A stretch of 64,000 nt of DNA from Dehalococcoidia bacterium (lineage in GTDB: Bacteria; Chloroflexota; Dehalococcoidia; UBA2979): positions 14,496 through 78,495 of the forward strand of contig JAWLHV010000005.1 in NCBI GenBank assembly GCA_041690175.1. The letters run 5' to 3'. Made by a program: the position numbers and the translations under genes. Below the pieces are notes generated by a model. That model saw nothing but the letters and a program-made list of their open reading frames with translations, made no database searches and was not told the origin of the DNA. Below, one piece after another: positions 6,769 to 58,080 of this stretch (position 1 is the first letter of the stretch; each line of letters begins with the position of its first letter).

Positions 6769-7797
6769 ATGGTCACCGCGCAGCGCTACTGCCCGTCCTG
6801 CGGGTCAGCCCGCGTCTCCCCGCGCCTGCTCCACCATTGGCGCTGCGAGGCCTGCGGCGTGACGGACTGGAAGAACGCCCAGCCCGTGGCCGGGACCTTC
6901 ATGGTGCGCGACGGCCGCGTGCTGCTGGTGCGCCGCGCGCCGGACATGGAGTACGGGCCCGGCGGCTGGGTGTTCCCCGGCGGCTTCGTGGAGCAGGGCG
7001 AGACGCCGTGGCAGGGCGCCCTCCGCGAGACGTGGGAGGAGGCGTGCGTGCGCCCCACCCTGCTCCGGGCGCTGCCCCCGCGCACCGTGCTGGAACCCCA
7101 CAACATCGTGATGCCGTTCCTGGCGGAACTGCCGCCCGGGCAGGAGCCCGCCCCCGGCCCCGAGTGCGCCGAGGCGCGCTGGTTCGCGTTCGACGAGGTG
7201 CCCTGGGAGGAGATCCCGTTCTCCAGCACGGCCGAGGCGCTGCGCGGCATCATCCAGGGCGAGGCGGGCACGGACCTCTTCGCCCGCGTGACGGAGCCGG
7301 GGCGGCCGCCCACCGCGCTCCGCTTCTGCGCGCGCTGCGGTGCGGCGCTCGGGCCCCGGGCCGCCGATGGCGCGCTCCGCTGCGGTCAGTGCGGCGCCGC
7401 GCGCTGGACGAACCCGCGCCCGAGCGCGGGCTTCCTGGCCATCCGGGACCGCCGGGTGCTGCTCGGGCTGCGTCGTGCGGGACGCGACGGCGCTGGCCGC
7501 TGGGCGTTGCCCTCCGGCCACATGGAGCCGGGCGAGACGCCGGCGGACACCGCCGCGCGCGAACTGCTGGAGGAGGCGGGGGTGCGCGCCTCGGCAGAGC
7601 GGTTCGTGGGCCTCTTCGCCAGCGGCGAGCACTGGGAGGCGGTCTACACCGGTCCGGTGGTCGACGACGCCGGCCCGCCTTCCGGCGAGTTCGAGGCCGT
7701 CGAGTGGTTCACCGGCCCTCGCGCGGCGCTCCTGCCGACCCATCACGGCACGCCTCGGCTGATCGAGTGGGCACGAGGTCAGGGGCTACTGGACTGA
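6769..7797 (+). CDS. tandem NUDIX hydrolase (two zinc-ribbon plus NUDIX modules)
   Basis: MVTAQRYCPSCG...; two Nudix boxes (GGFVEQGETPWQGALRETWEEACV and SGHMEPGETPADTAARELLEEAGV), each preceded by CxxC...CxxC. Confidence 0.8.
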   Translation: MVTAQRYCPSCGSARVSPRLLHHWRCEACGVTDWKNAQPVAGTFMVRDGRVLLVRRAPDMEYGPGGWVFPGGFVEQGETPWQGALRETWEEACVRPTLLRALPPRTVLEPHNIVMPFLAELPPGQEPAPGPECAEARWFAFDEVPWEEIPFSSTAEALRGIIQGEAGTDLFARVTEPGRPPTALRFCARCGAALGPRAADGALRCGQCGAARWTNPRPSAGFLAIRDRRVLLGLRRAGRDGAGRWALPSGHMEPGETPADTAARELLEEAGVRASAERFVGLFASGEHWEAVYTGPVVDDAGPPSGEFEAVEWFTGPRAALLPTHHGTPRLIEWARGQGLLD

Positions 7798-8429
7798 GCC
7801 GTCTCGGACGCGTCCCCGTCGTCACCGGGGGACGTCTCCGGCTCCGGGATCCAGTGCCAGAAGCCGGCGACGAAGCCCCGCGGATCCACCTGGTACTTCT
7901 GGTGCGTGGTCGCCGGCGTCTCCCCGCGGCAGACCCACGAGTAGATCGTCTGGTGGCCGGTCAGCGACCCGGGCAGGGGCGTCCCGGGAAAGTGCTCATT
8001 GCAGAACTGCACCATCTCCGGCGTGGCGTTGCTTCGCAGGTCCGCCTTGCCGCAGGGGAGGTTGGGCCCGTAGGTGCAGGCGTACACGAAACCGTCCATG
8101 CACCGCCAGGAGAACTCCGGCGTCTCCTCTCGCACATCGGCGTCCTGGGGGATCCCGGTAAGGTCCGCGAGCACGAGGAAGACATCCGCTGGGTGGGGCT
8201 CGCCCGCGTAGGGGGCGCCCGGCTCGTCCGCGTTCACCACCTGGCCGCAGTACGAGAACGGGCTCTCGTAGTCCACGTTCGCACTGGTGGCTGGAGCGGC
8301 ATGGGGCGTCCGAGGCGTCACGAGCGGCGTACTGCCCGTCTCCGCGTCTGGCTGCCGTCCGCCCTCGCAGGCAGCGGCCAGGAGGCTGAGCAGGATGGCC
8401 AAGACAACAAGCCCGCGAGGAGCACGCAT
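7779..8429 (-). CDS. secreted lipoprotein, function unknown
   Basis: Signal peptide plus lipobox MRAPRGLVVLAILLSLLAAAC; Cys-rich mature part; its end converges on and overlaps the NUDIX gene end. Confidence 0.55.
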   Translation of the reverse strand: MRAPRGLVVLAILLSLLAAACEGGRQPDAETGSTPLVTPRTPHAAPATSANVDYESPFSYCGQVVNADEPGAPYAGEPHPADVFLVLADLTGIPQDADVREETPEFSWRCMDGFVYACTYGPNLPCGKADLRSNATPEMVQFCNEHFPGTPLPGSLTGHQTIYSWVCRGETPATTHQKYQVDPRGFVAGFWHWIPEPETSPGDDGDASETAQSSSP

Positions 8430-8604
8430 GCACGGTCCACTTCAGAGCCCGCATGCGGTGGGAGTCCTTCCACCGTATCCCGGCCCCCCGGTGCGATCCG
8501 TAGCGATTCCGTGATAACCCGGCTGCCCTGCATCCCCGAGCGCTCACGCACCACCCGAGGGCATCACCGAACCATCGAGGCTCGCGCTCCCACGCCAAGA
8601 TCGG

Positions 8605-9130
8605 GTGCCGGGCCATCTGGCCCCTCCCCCTCGCGGGGGAGGGCTGGCGTGGGGGCAGTCACCGAGGGCCCTCGGACCTCCGAGTTCACGACGAACGGCC
8701 GGGCGAGCGGGCTCAGCACGGTGCGCCCCCAGGCAGAAGGGAGCGGCGCCCAACAGGCGCCGGGACCGTCGAGCACGAGGGAGGACTCAGGATTCTTGCG
8801 GCCGGGGGTCTTGCGACCAACTCCCGCTCGCAGGCGGCGAAGCCCTACCGCCCTCGTGGGTGAGGATTGGGGAGGGGGCAATCATCGAGGGGCCTCGGAG
8901 CTTCGAGTTCACGACGAACCACCGGGGGAGCGGGCGCAGCACGCTGCGCCCCTACAAGAGAAGGGGTTACGGCGACCGACATGCGCCGGGACCGCCGAGT
9001 AGGACAGGGGACCAGGAATCCTGCAGCCGGAAGTCTTGCGACGAACTCCCGCTCGCAGGCGGCGAGGCCCTTAGCCCCCTCCCCCCTTTGAGGGGGAGGT
9101 TGGGGAGAGGGGTCTCCGCCTCTCCTGCCT
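8605..9130. repeat. two tandem diverged copies (~245 bp each, ~75-80% identical) of a GC-rich palindromic intergenic repeat element
   Basis: Unit 1 ~8633-8872 and unit 2 ~8877-9120 share blocks cctcggagcttcgagttcacgacgaac, gggcgcagcacgctgcgcccc and actcccgctcgcaggcggcga; terminal hairpins are gcccctccccctcgcgggggagggc (8607-8632) and ccccctcccccctttgagggggagg (~9076-9100). Confidence 0.8.
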
Positions 9131-9135
9131 CTGGG

Positions 9136-10497
9136 CTACGGCTTCAGCGTCCGGTAGTCCGGCGCCGTGATGTCGCGCAGCACCGACACGTCCTTGTCCG
9201 CCAGGCGAGAGGCGATGCGCGGCTCCAGATCGCCGATGCGCTTATTGGTGGTCACCACCGTGTGCGCGCCAGACAGGTGGCGGTGGTTCAGCAACTGGTA
9301 CAACTTCTCCTCCGCCCACGGACTGGACTTCTGCGCCCCCAGGTCGTCCAGCACCAGCACCGGCGCCTCGACCAGCGCCCGGAACAACTGGTCGTAACGC
9401 CTCGGCGCATCGGGGGCGTAGGCGGCGCGGAGTTCGTCCAGCAGGTCCGGGACGTTGGCGAAGGCCACGCGGTCGCCGGCGTCCAGGCGCTCGTTGGCGA
9501 TGGCCGCGGCCAGGTGCGTCTTGCCGCAGCCGTTGCCACCCATCAGCACCAGCCACCCCTGCGGTTCTCGCGCCCAGCGCAGCGCCTCGCGGTAGGCCGC
9601 CTCCAGGCTCTTGCGCGGCTCGCCCTTCAGGCCGATGCCGTCCGGGATGAAGTCCGCGAACGTGAACTGCGAGAGCCGCTCCCGCGTCATCGCGCCGATG
9701 TGGAGATAGCGAGGGGCCGCGTCACCGTGGGCGAGTTCCACCACCTGCGAGAGCGTGGGATCCGATAGACGGCTCCCCAGCCGCTCGTCGATCTCCGCGG
9801 GATTGCGGACCGCCGTGAAGACCGTGGGCAGCGCCGCGTTGAAGCGGTAGGACACCACCTGGAAGAACTTCTCCCGCGCCCACGCCGTCTCCGAGTAGGC
9901 GTCCAGGTCGTCCAGCACCAGCAGCGGCGCGGTGCGCACCTGCTCCAGCAGGGCGTCGTAGCCCACCTCCGCGTCCTCGTCGTAGCCGGAGCGGAGGTGG
10001 TCCAGGAAGTCCGCCACGGCCATGAACAGCGCGGGGCCGCCGCGGTCGATGACCTCGTTCGCGATCGCCGCCGCCACGTGCGTCTTGCCTGCACCGTGTG
10101 GCCCGGTGAGGACCAGCCAGCCCTCGGGATCGCGCGCGAAGCGCTCCGCGATCGCCACGGCCTCGGCGTACTGCCCCTGCAGCCTCGGGTCGTTCGTGCG
10201 GCCGCTGCGCACCAGCGTCGCGAACGTGAGCCGCTGCATCGGTCCCAGGCGTGAGTACCGCAGCAGACGGCCCCGGCGCTCCTCTGGCGGCTCGTAGCGC
10301 GCGCACTCGCAGGGCACCGGGTGGCCGAAGCGCGGGTCCTGCGGGTCGCCGGTGACGCGCACGAAGCGCGCCCCCTGGCACAGGGGGCAGAGGTCCTCGC
10401 GCTCCTCGCGCGTCTCGACCGGCCGCGCGTCAGTCGCGGCGGTAGAGGTGCGCGTAGGGGTCTGCGGATCGCCCAGGATGTCCCGTAGTTGTTTCAT
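9136..10497 (-). CDS. DnaC/DnaI-like helicase loader with N-terminal zinc-binding motif and two tandem AAA+ modules
   Basis: CPLCQG...PCEC, then Walker A GPHGAGKTHVAAAIANE ... LLVLDDLD, then a second GGNGCGKTHLAAAIANE ... VLVLDDLG; lies directly downstream of dnaB and the DnaD-like gene. Confidence 0.75.
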   Translation of the reverse strand: MKQLRDILGDPQTPTRTSTAATDARPVETREEREDLCPLCQGARFVRVTGDPQDPRFGHPVPCECARYEPPEERRGRLLRYSRLGPMQRLTFATLVRSGRTNDPRLQGQYAEAVAIAERFARDPEGWLVLTGPHGAGKTHVAAAIANEVIDRGGPALFMAVADFLDHLRSGYDEDAEVGYDALLEQVRTAPLLVLDDLDAYSETAWAREKFFQVVSYRFNAALPTVFTAVRNPAEIDERLGSRLSDPTLSQVVELAHGDAAPRYLHIGAMTRERLSQFTFADFIPDGIGLKGEPRKSLEAAYREALRWAREPQGWLVLMGGNGCGKTHLAAAIANERLDAGDRVAFANVPDLLDELRAAYAPDAPRRYDQLFRALVEAPVLVLDDLGAQKSSPWAEEKLYQLLNHRHLSGAHTVVTTNKRIGDLEPRIASRLADKDVSVLRDITAPDYRTLKP

Positions 10498-11115: not shown

Positions 11116-12558
11116 TCAGAACCCGTCCCGGGGCGGTTCCTGGCGCAGGAGCAGGTCCTGGAAGGAGGCCGTCTTGGCCACCCAGCGCACCGTGACGGCG
11201 CCGGTGGGGCCGTTGCGGTGCTTCGCCAGGATCAGTTGGGCCAGGCCCGAAGGGTGCGCCCCGCCCGGCTCGTCCGGGTGCTGGTCCTGCCAGTCGTGCG
11301 CCTGCGTGTAGACGTCCTCGCGGTAGATGAACATCACGATGTCCGCGTCCTGCTCGATGGAGCCGGACTCGCGGAGGTCAGAGAGCATGGGGATGTGCGG
11401 CTGGCGCGTTTCCACGGCACGTGACAACTGGGCGCCGGCCACCACCGGGACGTTCAGTTCGCGCGCCATCTCCTTTAGCGCCCGGGAGATCTGGCTGATC
11501 TCGTTGGTACGGGTGTCCGAACGGCCGGCGCCGTGGAGCAACTGCAGGTAGTCCACCACCACCAGGTCCAGGCCGTGGTCCGCCTGCAGCCGGCGGCACT
11601 TCGCGCGGATCTCCGGCACGGACAGCACCGCCGAGTCGTCGATGAAGATCGGGGCGCCGCCCAGCAGGCCGTGCGCGTTCATCACGCGCGCCTCCTCCGC
11701 CTCCGTGTGGCGGCCCAGGCGCAGGCGGGACATCTCCACGCCTGCCTCGGCGGAGAGCATGCGCATCGCCAGGCTCTCGCCGCCCATCTCCAGGGAGAAC
11801 AGCGCCACGGTGCCGTGCTGCCCAATGGCGCAGTTGCGCGCCAGGTTGAGCATGAGCGAGGTCTTCCCCATGCCGGTGCGCGCGGCCAAGATCACCAGGT
11901 CGCCGCGCTTGTAGCCGCCGGCCAGCAACTGGTCCAGATCCATGAACCCAGTGCGGATGGACTGCGCGAGTTCGCCGTCCTCTTCTTCCGCGGGCGCCTC
12001 CAGGAACTCGTCCAGCAGGTCGCGCAGGCGCTTGAAGTCGCCAGCCGCCTCCGCGGTGCGCAGGCCCAGCAGCAGGCCCTCCGCCTCCGAGAGCACGGCC
12101 TTCACGTCCGGGCCGCCCTCGTAGGCGATGGAGGCGATCTGGCCGGCGGCCTGGATCAGGCGGCGGTAGAGGGCGTCTCGCGCCACGATGCGCGCGTGCG
12201 CCTCCACGCCCACGGCCGTGAAGTACTTCCCGGCCACCTCCACCAGGTAGGTCTCGCCACCGGCGGGGTCCAGGCGGCCCAGGCGATCCAGTTCGTGCGC
12301 GACGGTGGGAATGGTGATGGACTCGCCGCGCTCTCCCACGGAGAGGCAGGCCTCGTAGATCCAGCCGTTCTGCTCACGGAAGAAGTCTTCCGGGCGGACG
12401 ATGGGCAGGACGCGGGCGTAGGAGTCGTCGTCCAGCAGCAGGGCGGCGATGACCGCTTCCTCCGCGGAGACATCATGCGGGGGCAGGCCGGTCTGCGGGC
12501 GAGGGCGCTGGTCACGGCCGGGCGCGCGGAAGGGTGCGGGACGACCCTCGAGCACCAC
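11116..12558 (-). CDS. dnaB: replicative DNA helicase DnaB
   Basis: AALLLDDDSY..., Walker A ARTGMGKTSL, and LSDLRESGSIEQDADIVMFIYRE; conserved position after rplI. Confidence 0.95.
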   Translation of the reverse strand: MVLEGRPAPFRAPGRDQRPRPQTGLPPHDVSAEEAVIAALLLDDDSYARVLPIVRPEDFFREQNGWIYEACLSVGERGESITIPTVAHELDRLGRLDPAGGETYLVEVAGKYFTAVGVEAHARIVARDALYRRLIQAAGQIASIAYEGGPDVKAVLSEAEGLLLGLRTAEAAGDFKRLRDLLDEFLEAPAEEEDGELAQSIRTGFMDLDQLLAGGYKRGDLVILAARTGMGKTSLMLNLARNCAIGQHGTVALFSLEMGGESLAMRMLSAEAGVEMSRLRLGRHTEAEEARVMNAHGLLGGAPIFIDDSAVLSVPEIRAKCRRLQADHGLDLVVVDYLQLLHGAGRSDTRTNEISQISRALKEMARELNVPVVAGAQLSRAVETRQPHIPMLSDLRESGSIEQDADIVMFIYREDVYTQAHDWQDQHPDEPGGAHPSGLAQLILAKHRNGPTGAVTVRWVAKTASFQDLLLRQEPPRDGF

Positions 12559-35076: not shown

Positions 35077-35100
35077 CCCCTCCCCCTTTATGGGGGAGGG
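35077..35100. repeat. GC-rich palindromic hairpin (cccctcccc-loop-ggggagggg), downstream flank of the DUF559 gene
   Basis: cccctccccctttatgggggaggg; same motif family as 8607-8632, ~9076-9100 and 35471-35493. Confidence 0.75.
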
Positions 35101-35454
35101 CTAGGGAGGGGGTTCCGAGGTCAGTGCGTGCCAGACAGCCTGTTCCACCGATTCCAGGGCAGTGAGCACCTCTCGATTGCTGAAACGCAACACCCGCAGC
35201 CCCCGGCTCCTCATCCATGAGTCGCGCGCGTCATCGTAACTTCGCTGCTCGGCATGGTGGTTGCCATCCACCTCGATAACCAGTTGCCGCTCGATGCAGG
35301 TGAAGTCCGCGAAGTACGGGCCGAGAGGCTGCTGCCGGCGGAACTTGACCCTGCGAACCGGCGGCGGCGGAGCACCTGCCACAAGCGTCGTTCCGCCTCG
35401 GTGGGACTGCTGCGAAGGGATCGCGCACGTTCTCGACGATGGCGTCCCATGCAT
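35101..35454 (-). CDS. DUF559 endonuclease-domain protein (Vsr-like fold)
   Basis: VRRVKFRRQQPLGPYFADFTCIERQLVIEVDGNHH...LRFSNREV; ORF 35101..35517 trimmed to exclude the hairpin-derived N-terminus (SPFMGEGRGGG). Confidence 0.7.
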   Translation of the reverse strand: MHGTPSSRTCAIPSQQSHRGGTTLVAGAPPPPVRRVKFRRQQPLGPYFADFTCIERQLVIEVDGNHHAEQRSYDDARDSWMRSRGLRVLRFSNREVLTALESVEQAVWHALTSEPPP

Positions 35455-35470
35455 CGTCCCCCCACCCCGG

Positions 35471-35493
35471 CCCTCCCCCATGAAGGGGGAGGG
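35471..35493. repeat. GC-rich palindromic hairpin, upstream flank of the DUF559 gene
   Basis: ccctcccccatgaagggggaggg. Confidence 0.75.
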
Positions 35494-42419: not shown

Positions 42420-42640
42420 GCTCCCTCCGGCCCCCTCCCAGTGGGGTGCGGGAAGTCCCCTCGAGGTTCACCCGCAGCATCGAAGAGGGCGCAGCACGCT
42501 GCGCCCCTACGACGGACAGCCGGTCTGGCCACACCTCGAAGGGCGCCGGCCACCTCCGGCCCCCCTCTCCTTCCCACAGAGGGAAGGAGAGGGTTGGGAG
42601 GGGGGTCTCCGCCTCTGCCCGCTCGGCCTAGCCCGGGAGT
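42420..42640. repeat. partial copy of the GC-rich palindromic repeat element
   Basis: shares gggcgcagcacgctgcgcccctacgacgg and cccctctccttcccacagagggaaggagagggttgggaggggggtctccgcctc with 8605-9130 and 57960-58080. Confidence 0.75.
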
Positions 42641-43264: not shown

Positions 43265-44518
43265 CTAGGCCGTGACCGGCTCGCCGGAGCGCGCGCGCCG
43301 CGCTTCCACGAAGGACTCTACCGTTGGCTGGACGTGCAGGGGCGCCTCCACCTCGTCCATCACCGCCTCGATGGTCTTCAGGCCGCCGCCGGAGATGATC
43401 GCCACCGTCTCCTCGTCCCGGGGGATGAAGCCGGACTGCACCATCTTCCGCAGACAGGCGATGGTCACGCCGCCCGCAGTCTCCGCGAAGACGCCCTCCG
43501 TCTCCGCCAGCAACTTGATGCCCTCCACCACCTCGGCGTCGGTCACCATCTCCGCGCCGCCGCCGGTCTCCTGCATCTGCTTCAGCGCGTAGTAGCCGTC
43601 CGCCGGATTGCCGATGGCCAGCGACTTCGCGATGGTGTTCGGCTTCTGCGGGACAAAGTTCAGCGTGTCGTTCGCGTAGGCCGTGGCAATGGGCGAGCAG
43701 CCCTCCGCCTGGGCGCCGGACATACGCGTCTTCGGCTCATCGATGAGCCCCACCTTGTGGAACTCCTGCAGGCCCTTCCAGATCTTCGTGTACATGGAGC
43801 CGGACGCCATGGGCGCCACGATGTGCTGCGGCGCGCGCCAGCCCAGTTGCTCCGCGATCTCATAGCCCAGCGTGCGCGAGCCCTCCGCGTAGAAGGGACG
43901 CACGTTGATGTTCACGAAGGCCCAGTTGAACTGCATGGACAGTTCCGTGCACAGGCGGTTCACGTCGTCATAGGAGCCGCGCACGGTGACCAGCGTGGGG
44001 TCATAGATGGCGGAGCCCACCACCTTGCCCTTCTCCAGGTCGTCCGGGATGAAGACCAGGCACTCCATGCCCGCGCCGGCGGCGTGCGCCGCCACGGAGT
44101 TGGCCAGGTTGCCCGTGGACGCGCAGGCGATGGCGTCGAAGCCGAACTCCCTGGCCTTGGCGATCGCCACGGAGACCACGCGGTCCTTGAAGGACCAGGT
44201 GGGGTTCACGGTGTCGTTCTTGATCCAGAGCGTGTCCAAGCCAATGGCCTTCGCCAGGCGGTCGGCGCGGATCAGCGGCGTGTAGCCGTCGCCCAGGTCC
44301 ACCTTGTAGGCGGGGTCGCAGGGCAGCAGGTTGGCGTAGCGCCAGAGCGTGGTGGGGCCGGCGGCAATGGTGTCGCGCGTGGTGGCCTCGCGGATCGCGT
44401 CATAGTCGTACGCGACCTCCAGCGGGCCGAAGCAGAACTCGCACGAGAAGATCGGCGCAATCTCGTACTCGCGGCTGCACTCGCGACACTTCAGAGCGCG
44501 ATGGAACGATGCGGACAT
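43265..44518 (-). CDS. threonine synthase-like PLP enzyme with N-terminal zinc ribbon (predicted homocysteine synthase, MetM-like)
   Basis: LKCRECSREYEIAPIFSCEFCFGPLE then the PLP fold (SFKDR...) over 417 aa; AGGAAGG RBS; preceded by a SAM-I riboswitch. Confidence 0.85.
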   Translation of the reverse strand: MSASFHRALKCRECSREYEIAPIFSCEFCFGPLEVAYDYDAIREATTRDTIAAGPTTLWRYANLLPCDPAYKVDLGDGYTPLIRADRLAKAIGLDTLWIKNDTVNPTWSFKDRVVSVAIAKAREFGFDAIACASTGNLANSVAAHAAGAGMECLVFIPDDLEKGKVVGSAIYDPTLVTVRGSYDDVNRLCTELSMQFNWAFVNINVRPFYAEGSRTLGYEIAEQLGWRAPQHIVAPMASGSMYTKIWKGLQEFHKVGLIDEPKTRMSGAQAEGCSPIATAYANDTLNFVPQKPNTIAKSLAIGNPADGYYALKQMQETGGGAEMVTDAEVVEGIKLLAETEGVFAETAGGVTIACLRKMVQSGFIPRDEETVAIISGGGLKTIEAVMDEVEAPLHVQPTVESFVEARRARSGEPVTA

Positions 44519-44750: not shown

Positions 44751-44880
44751 CCGTTCATCTTCCCCGGCGCCCGTCCGTGTATGGCGCTCGGGCCGGAATT
44801 AGCACCGTGTCCGCCCAGGCATAGGCGACCGGTTGCCGCGGCTTCACAGGGCCGGAACCCTCCACCGCTCTGGATGAACC
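44751..44880 (-). promoter_or_regulatory. SAM-I (S-box) riboswitch aptamer
   Basis: Minus-strand transcript GGUUCAUCCAGAGCGGUGGAGGGUUCCGGCCCUGUGAAGCCGCGGCAACC...GGUGCUAAUUCCGGCCC...GGGGAAGAUGAACGG matches the S-box consensus block by block (P1 GUUCAUC/GAUGAAC, AGAGnGGUGGAGGGA, GGCCC, GAAgCC, GGCAACC, GUGCyAAUUCC). Confidence 0.85.
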
Positions 44881-50550: not shown

Positions 50551-50817
50551 GGGGGTCCTCTCTGCTTCGGGGCGCGCCGCGGCAATGCTGGGGCGGCGAG
50601 ATGCTCCCGGTACAGGTACTGCGCCCGCCCTGGCGAGGCTCGCGTGGTCGGCGAGCGCTCGAGGTCCCACGGGGGCGCTCAGGCGGCGGGAGCATAGCAG
50701 ACGGCCGGGTTCTGGCCCCGGCGCCCTGTCCCTCGACTGGGGTGGGGCTACGTCCCGCGGGCACGAAAACGGACGCCCCTGCGGGCGCCCGTCGTCACGT
50801 CTGTCGCAGGGTAGGCG

Positions 50818-55165: not shown

Positions 55166-55599
55166 CCCCCGGCCCACTTCGGGATCTTCGCCTTCGCCAC
55201 GGCGTCGTAGTAGGGGATGTACGGCTTCACGTCGATCACGGGCGTGCCGTCCACGAGGTCCAGCCCGCGCACCGCGATCGAGTCGCCCTCCACGCGGCGC
55301 ACCTCGCACACGGTGACACTCACGGGGTTCGGGCGTGCGCCCCGCAGCGCCAGCGCGCCCTGCAGCGGCAGCCGCTCGTCGCCAGAGGGGTACGCGGTGC
55401 GGCGGGCGAGGTACTCCGTGGGGTACCAGTCCAGCCATCCGATGACCATGACGTGCGTGTAGTCCTCCAGGCCTCGCAGCGCTTCCCCCAGCCCGGGATC
55501 GAGGTCGATTCGCGACTCCACCCGGCTCCAGTCCGCCCGGCTCACGTCGTGCTCGCCGTTGCGGACGGTGCCAATGGGGCGAAGCGTAATCTCGACCAT
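55162..55599 (-). CDS. trmO: tRNA (adenine37-N6)-methyltransferase TrmO/TsaA family
   Basis: MVEITLRPIGTVRN...PNPVSVT...GTPVIDVKPYIPY; ATGA overlap with the downstream glycosylase gene. Confidence 0.75.
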   Translation of the reverse strand: MVEITLRPIGTVRNGEHDVSRADWSRVESRIDLDPGLGEALRGLEDYTHVMVIGWLDWYPTEYLARRTAYPSGDERLPLQGALALRGARPNPVSVTVCEVRRVEGDSIAVRGLDLVDGTPVIDVKPYIPYYDAVAKAKIPKWAGG

Positions 55600-55613
55600 G
55601 GGCGGCATTGTAG

Positions 55614-57920
<2,307 letters not shown>

Positions 57921-57959: not shown

Positions 57960-58080
57960 AGATCACCGTCTGCCCATTCCTCCCTCAGGTGGGAGGCACC
58001 AACCCCTTCTGACCCCCTCCTCCTTCCCACAGAGGGAAGGAGAGGGCGGGGGAGGGGGGTCTCCGCGCTCCGCCCACCTC
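57960..58080. repeat. partial copy of the GC-rich palindromic repeat element
   Basis: ccttcccacagagggaaggagagggcgggggaggggggtctccgc is shared with 42550-42620 and ~9080-9130. Confidence 0.75.

Follow-up and report, generated by a model that had tools for sequence, protein, structure and literature searches.

The 64,000-nucleotide stretch of a Dehalococcoidia contig analysed here (the window) has a G+C content of 70.5%, and the homologues of its DnaC-like protein are proteins of metagenome-assembled genomes (MAGs) from the Dehalococcoidia/Chloroflexota. We examined a tandem repeat at positions 8605-9130, located in a 706-bp spacer between an open reading frame (ORF) of 216 amino acids (7779-8429, minus strand) and the gene for a 453-residue DnaC/IstB-like ATPase assigned by Pfam (9136-10497, minus strand). 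The product of the 216-aa ORF matched no Pfam family, and its N-terminus, read directly, resembles a lipoprotein signal; the opposite flank of the spacer is an L9-DnaB-DnaD-like-DnaC-like operon. The placement given in a preliminary description of this DNA, between a lipoprotein gene and a primosome operon, was thus borne out, as was its statement that all repeat copies are intergenic, each of them being situated between ORFs of high third-position G+C (GC3). The region 8605-9130 is neither a protein gene nor an RNA gene. As detailed below, it is probably an intergenic mosaic akin to the bacterial interspersed mosaic elements (BIMEs), built from two widespread kinds of self-folding, selfish or near-neutral repeats, namely intrastrand triplex motifs and repetitive extragenic palindromes (REPs), and duplicated locally between triplex motifs in direct orientation.

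A blastn comparison of the window with itself aligned 8628-8878 to 8851-9111 with 78.8% identity over 264 nt (E 1.9e-55), confirming the diverged head-to-tail pair that had been described. The copy length of ~245 bp originally proposed has to be corrected to a period of ~225 bp: four families of direct repeats (D1-D4) place the starts of successive copies 223-226 bp apart, and a partial third unit, marked by a 20-nt match between 8611-8630 and 9066-9085, consists of the hairpin module alone before the array ends, yielding ~2.2 units of ~226 bp in total. Tandem Repeats Finder, at its thresholds, did not call the 225-bp array. Each unit follows the layout triplex motif-spacer-REP-spacer and is closed by another triplex motif. 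Unit 1 (8611-8840, plus strand, ~226 bp, delimited by D1-D4 and blastn) carries a triplex-motif module, a spacer, a decayed REP and a unit-specific 3′ part, and unit 2 (8841-9065, plus strand, delimited by direct repeats, blastn and unit alignment) carries a decayed triplex-motif module, a spacer, an intact REP and its own unit-specific 3′ part. The array as a whole thus holds directly oriented triplex motifs at 8622, 9078 and, in decayed form, 8848, along with REPs at 8709 (decayed) and 8932 (intact). No Pfam family was found in the ORFs spanning it.

The preliminary description had treated the whole repeat as a dispersed element family, which it is not. Outside the array, the only unit sequence recurring in the self-comparison of the window was two short blocks, and these were found where they had been claimed, the first being GGGCGCAGCACGCTGCGCCCCTAC at 8932-8955 and 42487-42510 and the second a purine arm plus G-rich tail at seven sites. 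Both short modules are present in the alleged partial copy at 42420-42640; that at 57960-58080 contains a hairpin of the triplex type only. Searches with whole units by nhmmer and blastn returned, beyond one orthologous locus in relatives (L146/L147, see below), short modules only; for the ~100 nt 3′ of the REP in each unit, nhmmer turned up no further copy, whether in the window or across the ~1.1 Mb of loci that had been fetched, and a 22-mer identical in both units yielded just two chance matches in a metagenome collection, both in coding sequence.

The first of the two recurrent blocks, hereafter module R, is exact at its two positions, where shuffled sequences lead one to expect none. On the minus strand it starts with a GTAG tag (8955-8952 and 42510-42507) followed by a GC stem of 8-9 bp and a loop of 2-4 nt. 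The copy at 8932-8955 (minus strand) reads 5′-GTAG GGGCGCAG CGTG CTGCGCCC-3′ and folds as a DNA hairpin of -10.5 kcal/mol (z -2.7), and the second intact copy, at 42487-42510 (minus strand) between convergent genes, folds at -11.5 kcal/mol (z -4.3). The unit alignment places a third copy at 8709-8732 (minus strand; GGGCTCAGCACGGTGCGCCCCCAG on the plus strand), which has stem mismatches, has lost the tag and adopts no stable fold (z +0.4). Since GGGCGCAG-CGTG-CTGCGCCC agrees with the definition of a REP palindrome (20-40 bp, GC-rich stem of 6-13 bp, short loop), module R is, by layout, a GTAG-tagged REP; of the two blocks that had been called REP-like, this is the only one to which the term applies, the hairpin block being a triplex motif instead. 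GTAG-tagged REPs comprise 24 families, one of them in Chloroflexi, and are proposed substrates of the REP-associated tyrosine transposases (RAYTs) (Di Nocera et al. 2013, PMC3733652).

The distribution of module R is wide. The exact 24-mer was found in at least 117 reference-genome stretches, and among the matches listed its hosts belong to about ten phyla and include three complete chromosomes; they are Chloroflexota, Acidobacteriota, Gemmatimonadota, a Gloeobacterales cyanobacterium, Zixibacteria and Deltaproteobacteria, and further Deinococcales, Armatimonadota, Rhodothermales, Nitrospinota and Acetothermia. The hairpin with a pyrimidine at one position was found in 27 viral-contig stretches, with TAC next in nearly all of them, and REP variants in the reference-genome loci retain pairing through changes on both arms. 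In the window there are two intact REPs and one decayed REP in 64 kb, all intergenic; a relative MAG has several per few kb on contigs that were selected for their REPs. Inverted REP doublets (REPINs) were not seen in the window, the copies at 8932 and 42487 being single and the two REPs of the array having the same orientation. Tblastn with E. coli RayT over ~1.1 Mb including the window gave no match, a single-copy gene elsewhere being possible, and a scan of all fetched loci and the window for the HUH...YxxNP signature, which the E. coli control passes, found no RAYT-like gene. The ORFs lying between inverted REP pairs were ordinary, unrelated genes, with no transposase and no recurrent small gene among them. 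Two weak REP-like matches, at 50759 and 51179, were discarded as they are not hairpins. A literature search for the sequence of module R found no report of it.

The second block, module H, is a perfect polypyrimidine/polypurine (Y/R) hairpin followed by a G-rich tail. Perfect Y/R hairpins of 8-13 bp lie at 8622, 9078, 35078, 42563 and 58020 (plus strand) and at 35471 (minus strand), with a decayed copy at 8848; the purine arm plus tail accounts for seven distinct sites in the 64 kb, compared to 0.15 expected. Every module of the window is within ~100 nt of a gene 3′ end. The strong hairpins of the preliminary description hold for the intact modules of both kinds, whose DNA hairpins have folding energies between -10 and -22 kcal/mol, and do not hold for the decayed copies in unit 1 and in the middle of the array, which no longer fold. 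In the array, the first triplex motif (TM1, 8622-8655, plus strand) reads CCCTCCCCC-tcgc-GGGGGAGGG and then continues into the G-rich tail GGCGTGGGGG, with a predicted DNA hairpin of -14.5 kcal/mol; the decayed TM2 (8848-8878, plus strand) retains the G-rich tail GGGGAGGGGG after a weak hairpin that folds no better than shuffled sequences; and TM3 (9078-9112, plus strand), separated by 24 nt from the dnaC-like stop codon, reads CCTCCCCC-ctttga-GGGGGAGG-tt-GGGGAGAGGGG. Elsewhere, the motif at 42563-42605 (plus strand) has a 13-bp stem (CCCTCTCCTTCCC / GGGAAGGAGAGGG) and the tail GGGAGGGGGG and is the most stable of all (-22.2 kcal/mol, z -3.9), and the same stem type is found at 58013-58059 (plus strand), downstream of a gyrB-like gene. 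TM3 is followed by a C-rich extension, TCTCCGCCTCTCC (9113-9132, plus strand), able to pair with the G tail and found also after the motifs at 42606 and 58060; the tail could consequently alternate, as far as pairing potential goes, between third strand and hairpin arm. The triplex motifs of this lineage were likewise observed to share a conserved 3′ extension, GGGGTCTCCGCCTCT(C/G)CC, at 9109-9132, 42602-42620 and 58056-58075.

The G-rich tail is the diagnostic part of module H. In many unrelated loci it mirrors the purine arm, with the A of the arm either kept or swapped for T. This relationship was assessed on an independent sample of hairpins fetched by stem-only patterns of opposite asymmetry. 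Hairpins with the arm GGGGGAGGG had the tail GGGWGGGGG in 46 cases and GGGGGWGGG in four, while those with the arm GGGAGGGGG had these tails in three and 30 cases, respectively, so that tail type tracks arm asymmetry (Fisher P = 6e-15). The mirror repeat and the A or T at the interruption, which fits A.A-T and T.A-T triplets, suit a third strand of the purine-motif type and preclude Watson-Crick pairing of the tail with the arm. The layout of the modules is that of class II motifs, i.e. a Y-arm, a 4-6-nt loop, an R-arm, a 2-3-nt linker and a tail of G, T and A. On the strength of its sequence, module H is the known class II intrastrand triplex motif, successively named BoxC in E. coli, then PIT element and then TM-ECO (Holder et al. 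2015, PMC4666352). The published E. coli pattern, CCCTCNCCC N3-6 GGGNGAGGG N3 GGGNGAGGG, does not describe the window motifs, whose arms, read directly, do fit and whose mismatch is confined to the third block (GGGAGGGGG or GGGTGGGGG in place of GGGNGAGGG), because the window stems are asymmetric and their tails correctly mirrored. Judged by these blocks, the window motifs share a class with TM-ECO and do not belong to the E. coli sequence family. The isolated cccctcccc-N-ggggagggg hairpins reported at 35 kb are indeed present, and they belong to this separate, named class.

According to Holder et al., the isolated strand of the E. coli motif forms a stable triplex by circular dichroism (CD) and nuclear magnetic resonance (NMR) (PMC4666352). 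The same paper describes the motif as strictly intergenic, with inverted pairs on record, as sharply unequal in number between close strains and as surrounded by unusually variable loci (PMC4666352). The local history of the window array may be traced in its relatives, where the orthologous loci retain the gene order L9-DnaB-DnaD-like-DnaC-like-lipoprotein. In L145, whose DnaC-like protein is 90% identical to that of the window, the spacer is 231 bp long and contains no module; in L146/L147 (89%), a single shorter unit stands between two Y/R hairpins; and in L148 (87%), the spacer has a single module H. The L146 unit and unit 1 of the window are homologous. Like 42420-42640, the L146 unit also agrees with the window units in having its parts in the order motif-REP-motif and in containing a short stretch, TCGAG(G)TTCAC. 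Divergence between filled and empty spacers is too great for exact ends or a target duplication to be read against an empty site. Motif-like sequences number seven per 64 kb in the window and none per 30 kb in the relative that contributes L145 and a further locus, L427. On this comparison, the array is local, unstable and non-essential. In L145, the dnaC-like gene leads at its 3′ end into a fivefold tandem repeat of GGGCTTCA (11262-11310), a second type of instability at the spot where the window has its motif/REP mosaic.

How such an array might have arisen may be pictured as follows. When single-stranded, the DNA of a triplex motif would fold into its hairpin, and the G-rich tail would lie in the major groove of that hairpin via reverse-Hoogsteen pairing. 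An ancestral unit of the form motif-spacer-REP-spacer-motif, such as the single unit of the relative suggests, would have been located downstream of the dnaC-like gene, and its ~226-bp motif-to-motif segment would have been duplicated in place, since the repeat period equals the distance between direct motifs. Replication slippage or unequal exchange between these motifs is the likely route, and a local duplication agrees with the instability reported around motifs of this kind. The duplicated units would then have drifted to 79% identity. As for the modules themselves, their spread and turnover probably involve intermediates of single-stranded DNA; the RAYT transposase is the established model for the spread of REPs, and we know of no enzyme established for the triplex motifs. 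Should neighbouring genes be influenced at all, for instance by a shielding of mRNA 3′ ends, this would be a side effect.

Several observations weigh against this reading. Four of the seven window motifs have imperfect mirror tails. Read directly, the tails at 35078 and 35471 are the only ones in the window to mirror their arms perfectly; the match extends to 8/9 positions at 8622 and 7/8 at 9078, and falls to ~8/13 at 42563 and 58013. The E. coli triplex is reported for the isolated single strand only and went undetected in vivo by dimethyl sulfate (DMS) footprinting (PMC4666352). We infer the duplication mechanism from the positions of the repeat borders only; copy numbers are extrapolated from 64 kb of genome; and with no RAYT found in the window or the fetched loci, the mobility of REPs in this organism would be modelled by analogy. 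The closeness of all modules to gene 3′ ends (within ~100 nt) would suit a function in RNA as well.

That the hairpins act in RNA, as factor-independent terminators or as stabilisers of operon 3′ ends, and are kept for that purpose, is in our judgement unlikely. Apart from the closeness of every module to a stop codon, the stems are strong, and in E. coli REPs can protect mRNA 3′ ends. Yet no T/U run follows any of the hairpins (there are no T-run terminators on either strand of 8300-9300, nor was a sigma-70-like promoter found in the array region), and close relatives have no modules at the same gene ends. The suggestion that the copies are terminators, made in the preliminary description, is further at odds with the lack of terminator and promoter activity of the PIT/BoxC class in E. 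coli (Hoyne and Maher, as cited in PMC4666352). Furthermore, a mirror tail would be useless in an RNA hairpin, and purine-motif triplexes are reported not to form in RNA (PMC4666352). The triplex assignment itself has a competitor in the G-quadruplex (G4), which the four G-runs of purine arm plus tail might form in competition with the hairpin, making the elements G4 switches; GGGGGAGGG-cta-GGGAGGGGG, for instance, has four G-tracts of at least three. We consider this very unlikely, as a quadruplex could form without a tail that mirrors the arm, whereas the A/T interruption is in fact placed in accordance with the arm, and as the conserved pyrimidine arm is left unexplained; moreover, for the E. 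coli motif the CD and NMR data pointed to a triplex (PMC4666352).

The alternative that each ~225-bp unit is a non-autonomous transposon of the MITE type (for miniature transposable elements with inverted repeats), moved as an entire unit by a transposase whose gene is located elsewhere, with two insertions next to each other, draws on the variable spacer content of relatives and on the motif-REP-motif order and TCGAG(G)TTCAC stretch that the window units have in common with 42420-42640 and the L146 unit. It is highly improbable, as is the MITE-like nature suggested in the preliminary description, in view of end modules that are direct and not inverted repeats, of a target duplication that is not readable, and of searches in which the units recovered the orthologous L146/L147 copy and short modules only, with no true copy of the conserved 22-mer in the metagenome collection. 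A period equal to the motif-to-motif distance is, for its part, what an in-place duplication predicts. Least probable of all, to the point that we give it hardly any credence, is a structured non-coding RNA present in two copies. Several local palindromes are retained in both units and the fold of unit 2 is slightly better than that of shuffled sequences (z = -2.2), but neither unit 1 nor the minus strand surpasses shuffled sequences in its fold (whole-unit z values -0.3, -2.2 and -0.95), Rfam gave nothing in the region at the gathering threshold or at E up to 10, no other copies were found in the fetched loci or the metagenome collection, and the units are absent from the spacer of the relative with the 90% identical DnaC-like protein. 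We thus favour the locally duplicated mosaic of triplex motifs and REPs.

Two of the triplex motifs of the window bracket a frameshifted gene for a DUF559 (Vsr-like) nuclease, of which a 310-bp remnant in two frames persists at 35119-35426 (minus strand). Joined, the remnant matches the Pfam DUF559 model over nearly its whole length (E 1e-35) and the solved 'endonuclease-like protein' from Neisseria in PDB entry 3HRL (E 5e-25). The motif at the 3′ flank of the pseudogene (35078-35112, plus strand) has the perfect mirror tail GGGGGAGGG cta GGGAGGGGG pointing toward the gene, and that at the 5′ flank (35458-35493, minus strand; GGGGGAGGG ccg GGGTGGGGG) is inverted, so that both tails point inward. 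We rejected the possibility that the tandem units are themselves a decayed DUF559 gene, because tblastn matched the pseudogene only at 35.1-35.4 kb and, by blastn, the array and the 35-kb region have only hairpin modules in common.

Three clear DUF559 genes in loci fetched for other reasons were flanked by motifs likewise, and a fourth, weak Vsr-like match was not. A directed search returned 32 viral-contig DUF559 loci, of which 31 were analysed: a hairpin lay within 260 nt upstream in 29, downstream in 24 and on both sides in 23, most of these loci being one group with a shared context and hence few independent cases, and outer accessory hairpins blurring the count of polarity. Motifs adjoined DUF559 in all eight named records, from five phyla or classes, in most cases flanking it on either side in inverted orientation (Azospirillum brasilense, A. 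lipoferum, Sphingomonas parapaucimobilis, Qipengyuania citrea, Neisseria gonorrhoeae, Pseudanabaena and two Deinococcus). In the 30-40-kb neighbourhoods of four of them, 3/7, 4/6, 2/2 and 3/3 Y/R hairpins were within 200 nt of the DUF559 gene, a local enrichment with P values of 2e-4, 4e-6, 6e-4 and 7e-6. In E. coli, a motif-like sequence is found at the stop codon of the DUF559 gene ycjD, and a BoxC follows 150 nt downstream. In the records compared, the association as such looks solid. Our literature search found no paper containing both 'DUF559' and 'triplex', and Holder et al. (2015) reported no gene or mobile element associated with the motif and did not mention a gene of the DUF559 type (PMC4666352).

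By analogy to REPs and RAYTs, the triplex motifs may be cis-acting ends or preferred targets of a selfish DUF559 cassette, in which case the solitary motifs of 8605-9130 would be orphan derivatives; we put this forward tentatively, as a possibility somewhat more doubtful than probable. The polarity is reversed in Deinococcus, where the tails point outward from DUF559, which calls for caution over a causal relationship. So does the situation in E. coli, where 3,375 of 5,426 genomes match the K-12 fabI-sapF spacer with ycjD and its BoxC (L392 5041-5828) across 80% or more of its length, the others lacking it, and the ycjD locus is absent from ~38% of complete genomes; in genomes without ycjD at this position, matches to the BoxC part of the query nevertheless occur elsewhere. 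This locus proved unsuitable for a clear-cut comparison of presence and absence, the O157:H7 genome that was inspected having a larger replacement by unrelated AT-rich sequence and no cassette-sized gap. At the sites orthologous to the window pseudogene, one relative has a DUF559 frame with neither frameshift nor internal stop, uncalled by the gene caller and without flanking motifs (L430 1040-1422), another has only ~45 nt of the DUF559 5′ end (L427 3869-4000) and a third site is empty (L429 3938-4000). Taken together, the three sites show a stepwise decay of DUF559 in the lineage. With a gene without motifs in L430, a remnant in L427 and nothing in L429, the DUF559 gene is old at this site and the motifs came or went independently. 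The motif-free gene of L430 is a further caution for the causal cassette.

Two other features of the window were recorded. A SAM riboswitch (RF00162) at 44752-44880 on the minus strand, with 70.4 bits compared to a gathering score of 44.4, is upstream of the minus-strand gene at 43265-44518. On a crude gene map based on GC3, gene orientation flips from mostly minus to plus at ~55440-55670, in the spacer upstream of the gyrB-like gene, and this switch may be a replication-origin region.

Compared to known systems, the array is ordinary in kind, consisting of two known repeat classes in a new host lineage. With BIMEs it shares an intergenic cluster in which short palindromic units are repeated alongside further conserved motifs of small size, and a unit number that varies, as BIMEs do among enterobacterial strains. 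However, the REPs of BIMEs alternate in orientation, whereas those of the window have one orientation and a triplex motif as their partner, and part of each window unit is locus-specific, so that the likeness is one of principle and the array is not a BIME by definition. The units are in the size class of MITEs (100-400 bp) and resemble them in being non-coding, intergenic and rich in secondary structure, but they have no terminal inverted repeats, no readable target-site duplication and, in the sequence searched, no dispersed full-length copies. For annotation, this spacer of a poorly studied Chloroflexota lineage is best recorded as repeat filler of two named classes and should not be labelled as gene, small RNA or MITE.

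Module R resembles GTAG-tagged REPs in the unpaired GTAG beside a short-looped, GC-rich stem of 8-9 bp, in being extragenic and often clustered with stem variants that preserve pairing, and in belonging to a class reported from Chloroflexi (family GTAG-23 of Thermomicrobium roseum). It differs from the REP/REPIN-RAYT system, reportedly worked out by Nunvar in 2010 and by Bertels and Rainey in 2011, in that neither the window nor the fetched loci showed a cognate RAYT and in that the window copies are single and not inverted doublets. A REP family is usually held to be confined to one species or genus, and an exact 24-nt REP identical across about ten phyla, among the matches listed, conflicts with that lineage-specific picture.

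Module H shares with BoxC/PIT/TM-ECO the C-rich arm of ~9 nt, the 3-6-nt loop, the complementary G-rich arm, the 2-3-nt linker and the second G-rich block, as well as an intergenic location on either strand, sometimes as inverted pairs, and a copy number very unequal among close relatives with unstable loci. Work on BoxC and PIT reportedly goes back to Bachellier in the 1990s and to Hoyne et al. in 2000, and we know of no function, origin or partner protein assigned to these elements since the 1990s. Against this background, the bracketing of DUF559 genes provides a candidate partner that can be tested at the bench, and for the large DUF559 family it would provide a first functional context. 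Unlike the E. coli elements, the window motifs have the stems CCCTCCCCC/GGGGGAGGG or CCCTCTCCTTCCC/GGGAAGGAGAGGG and a third block that is a true mirror (GGGAGGGGG or GGGTGGGGG), reside in a Chloroflexota host and not in Proteobacteria or Cyanobacteria, carry the C-rich 3′ extension TCTCCGCCTCT added in this lineage and are interleaved with REPs. The dependence of tail on arm, finally, adds comparative evidence from natural sequences that the arm constrains the third block in the manner that the triplex fold demands.

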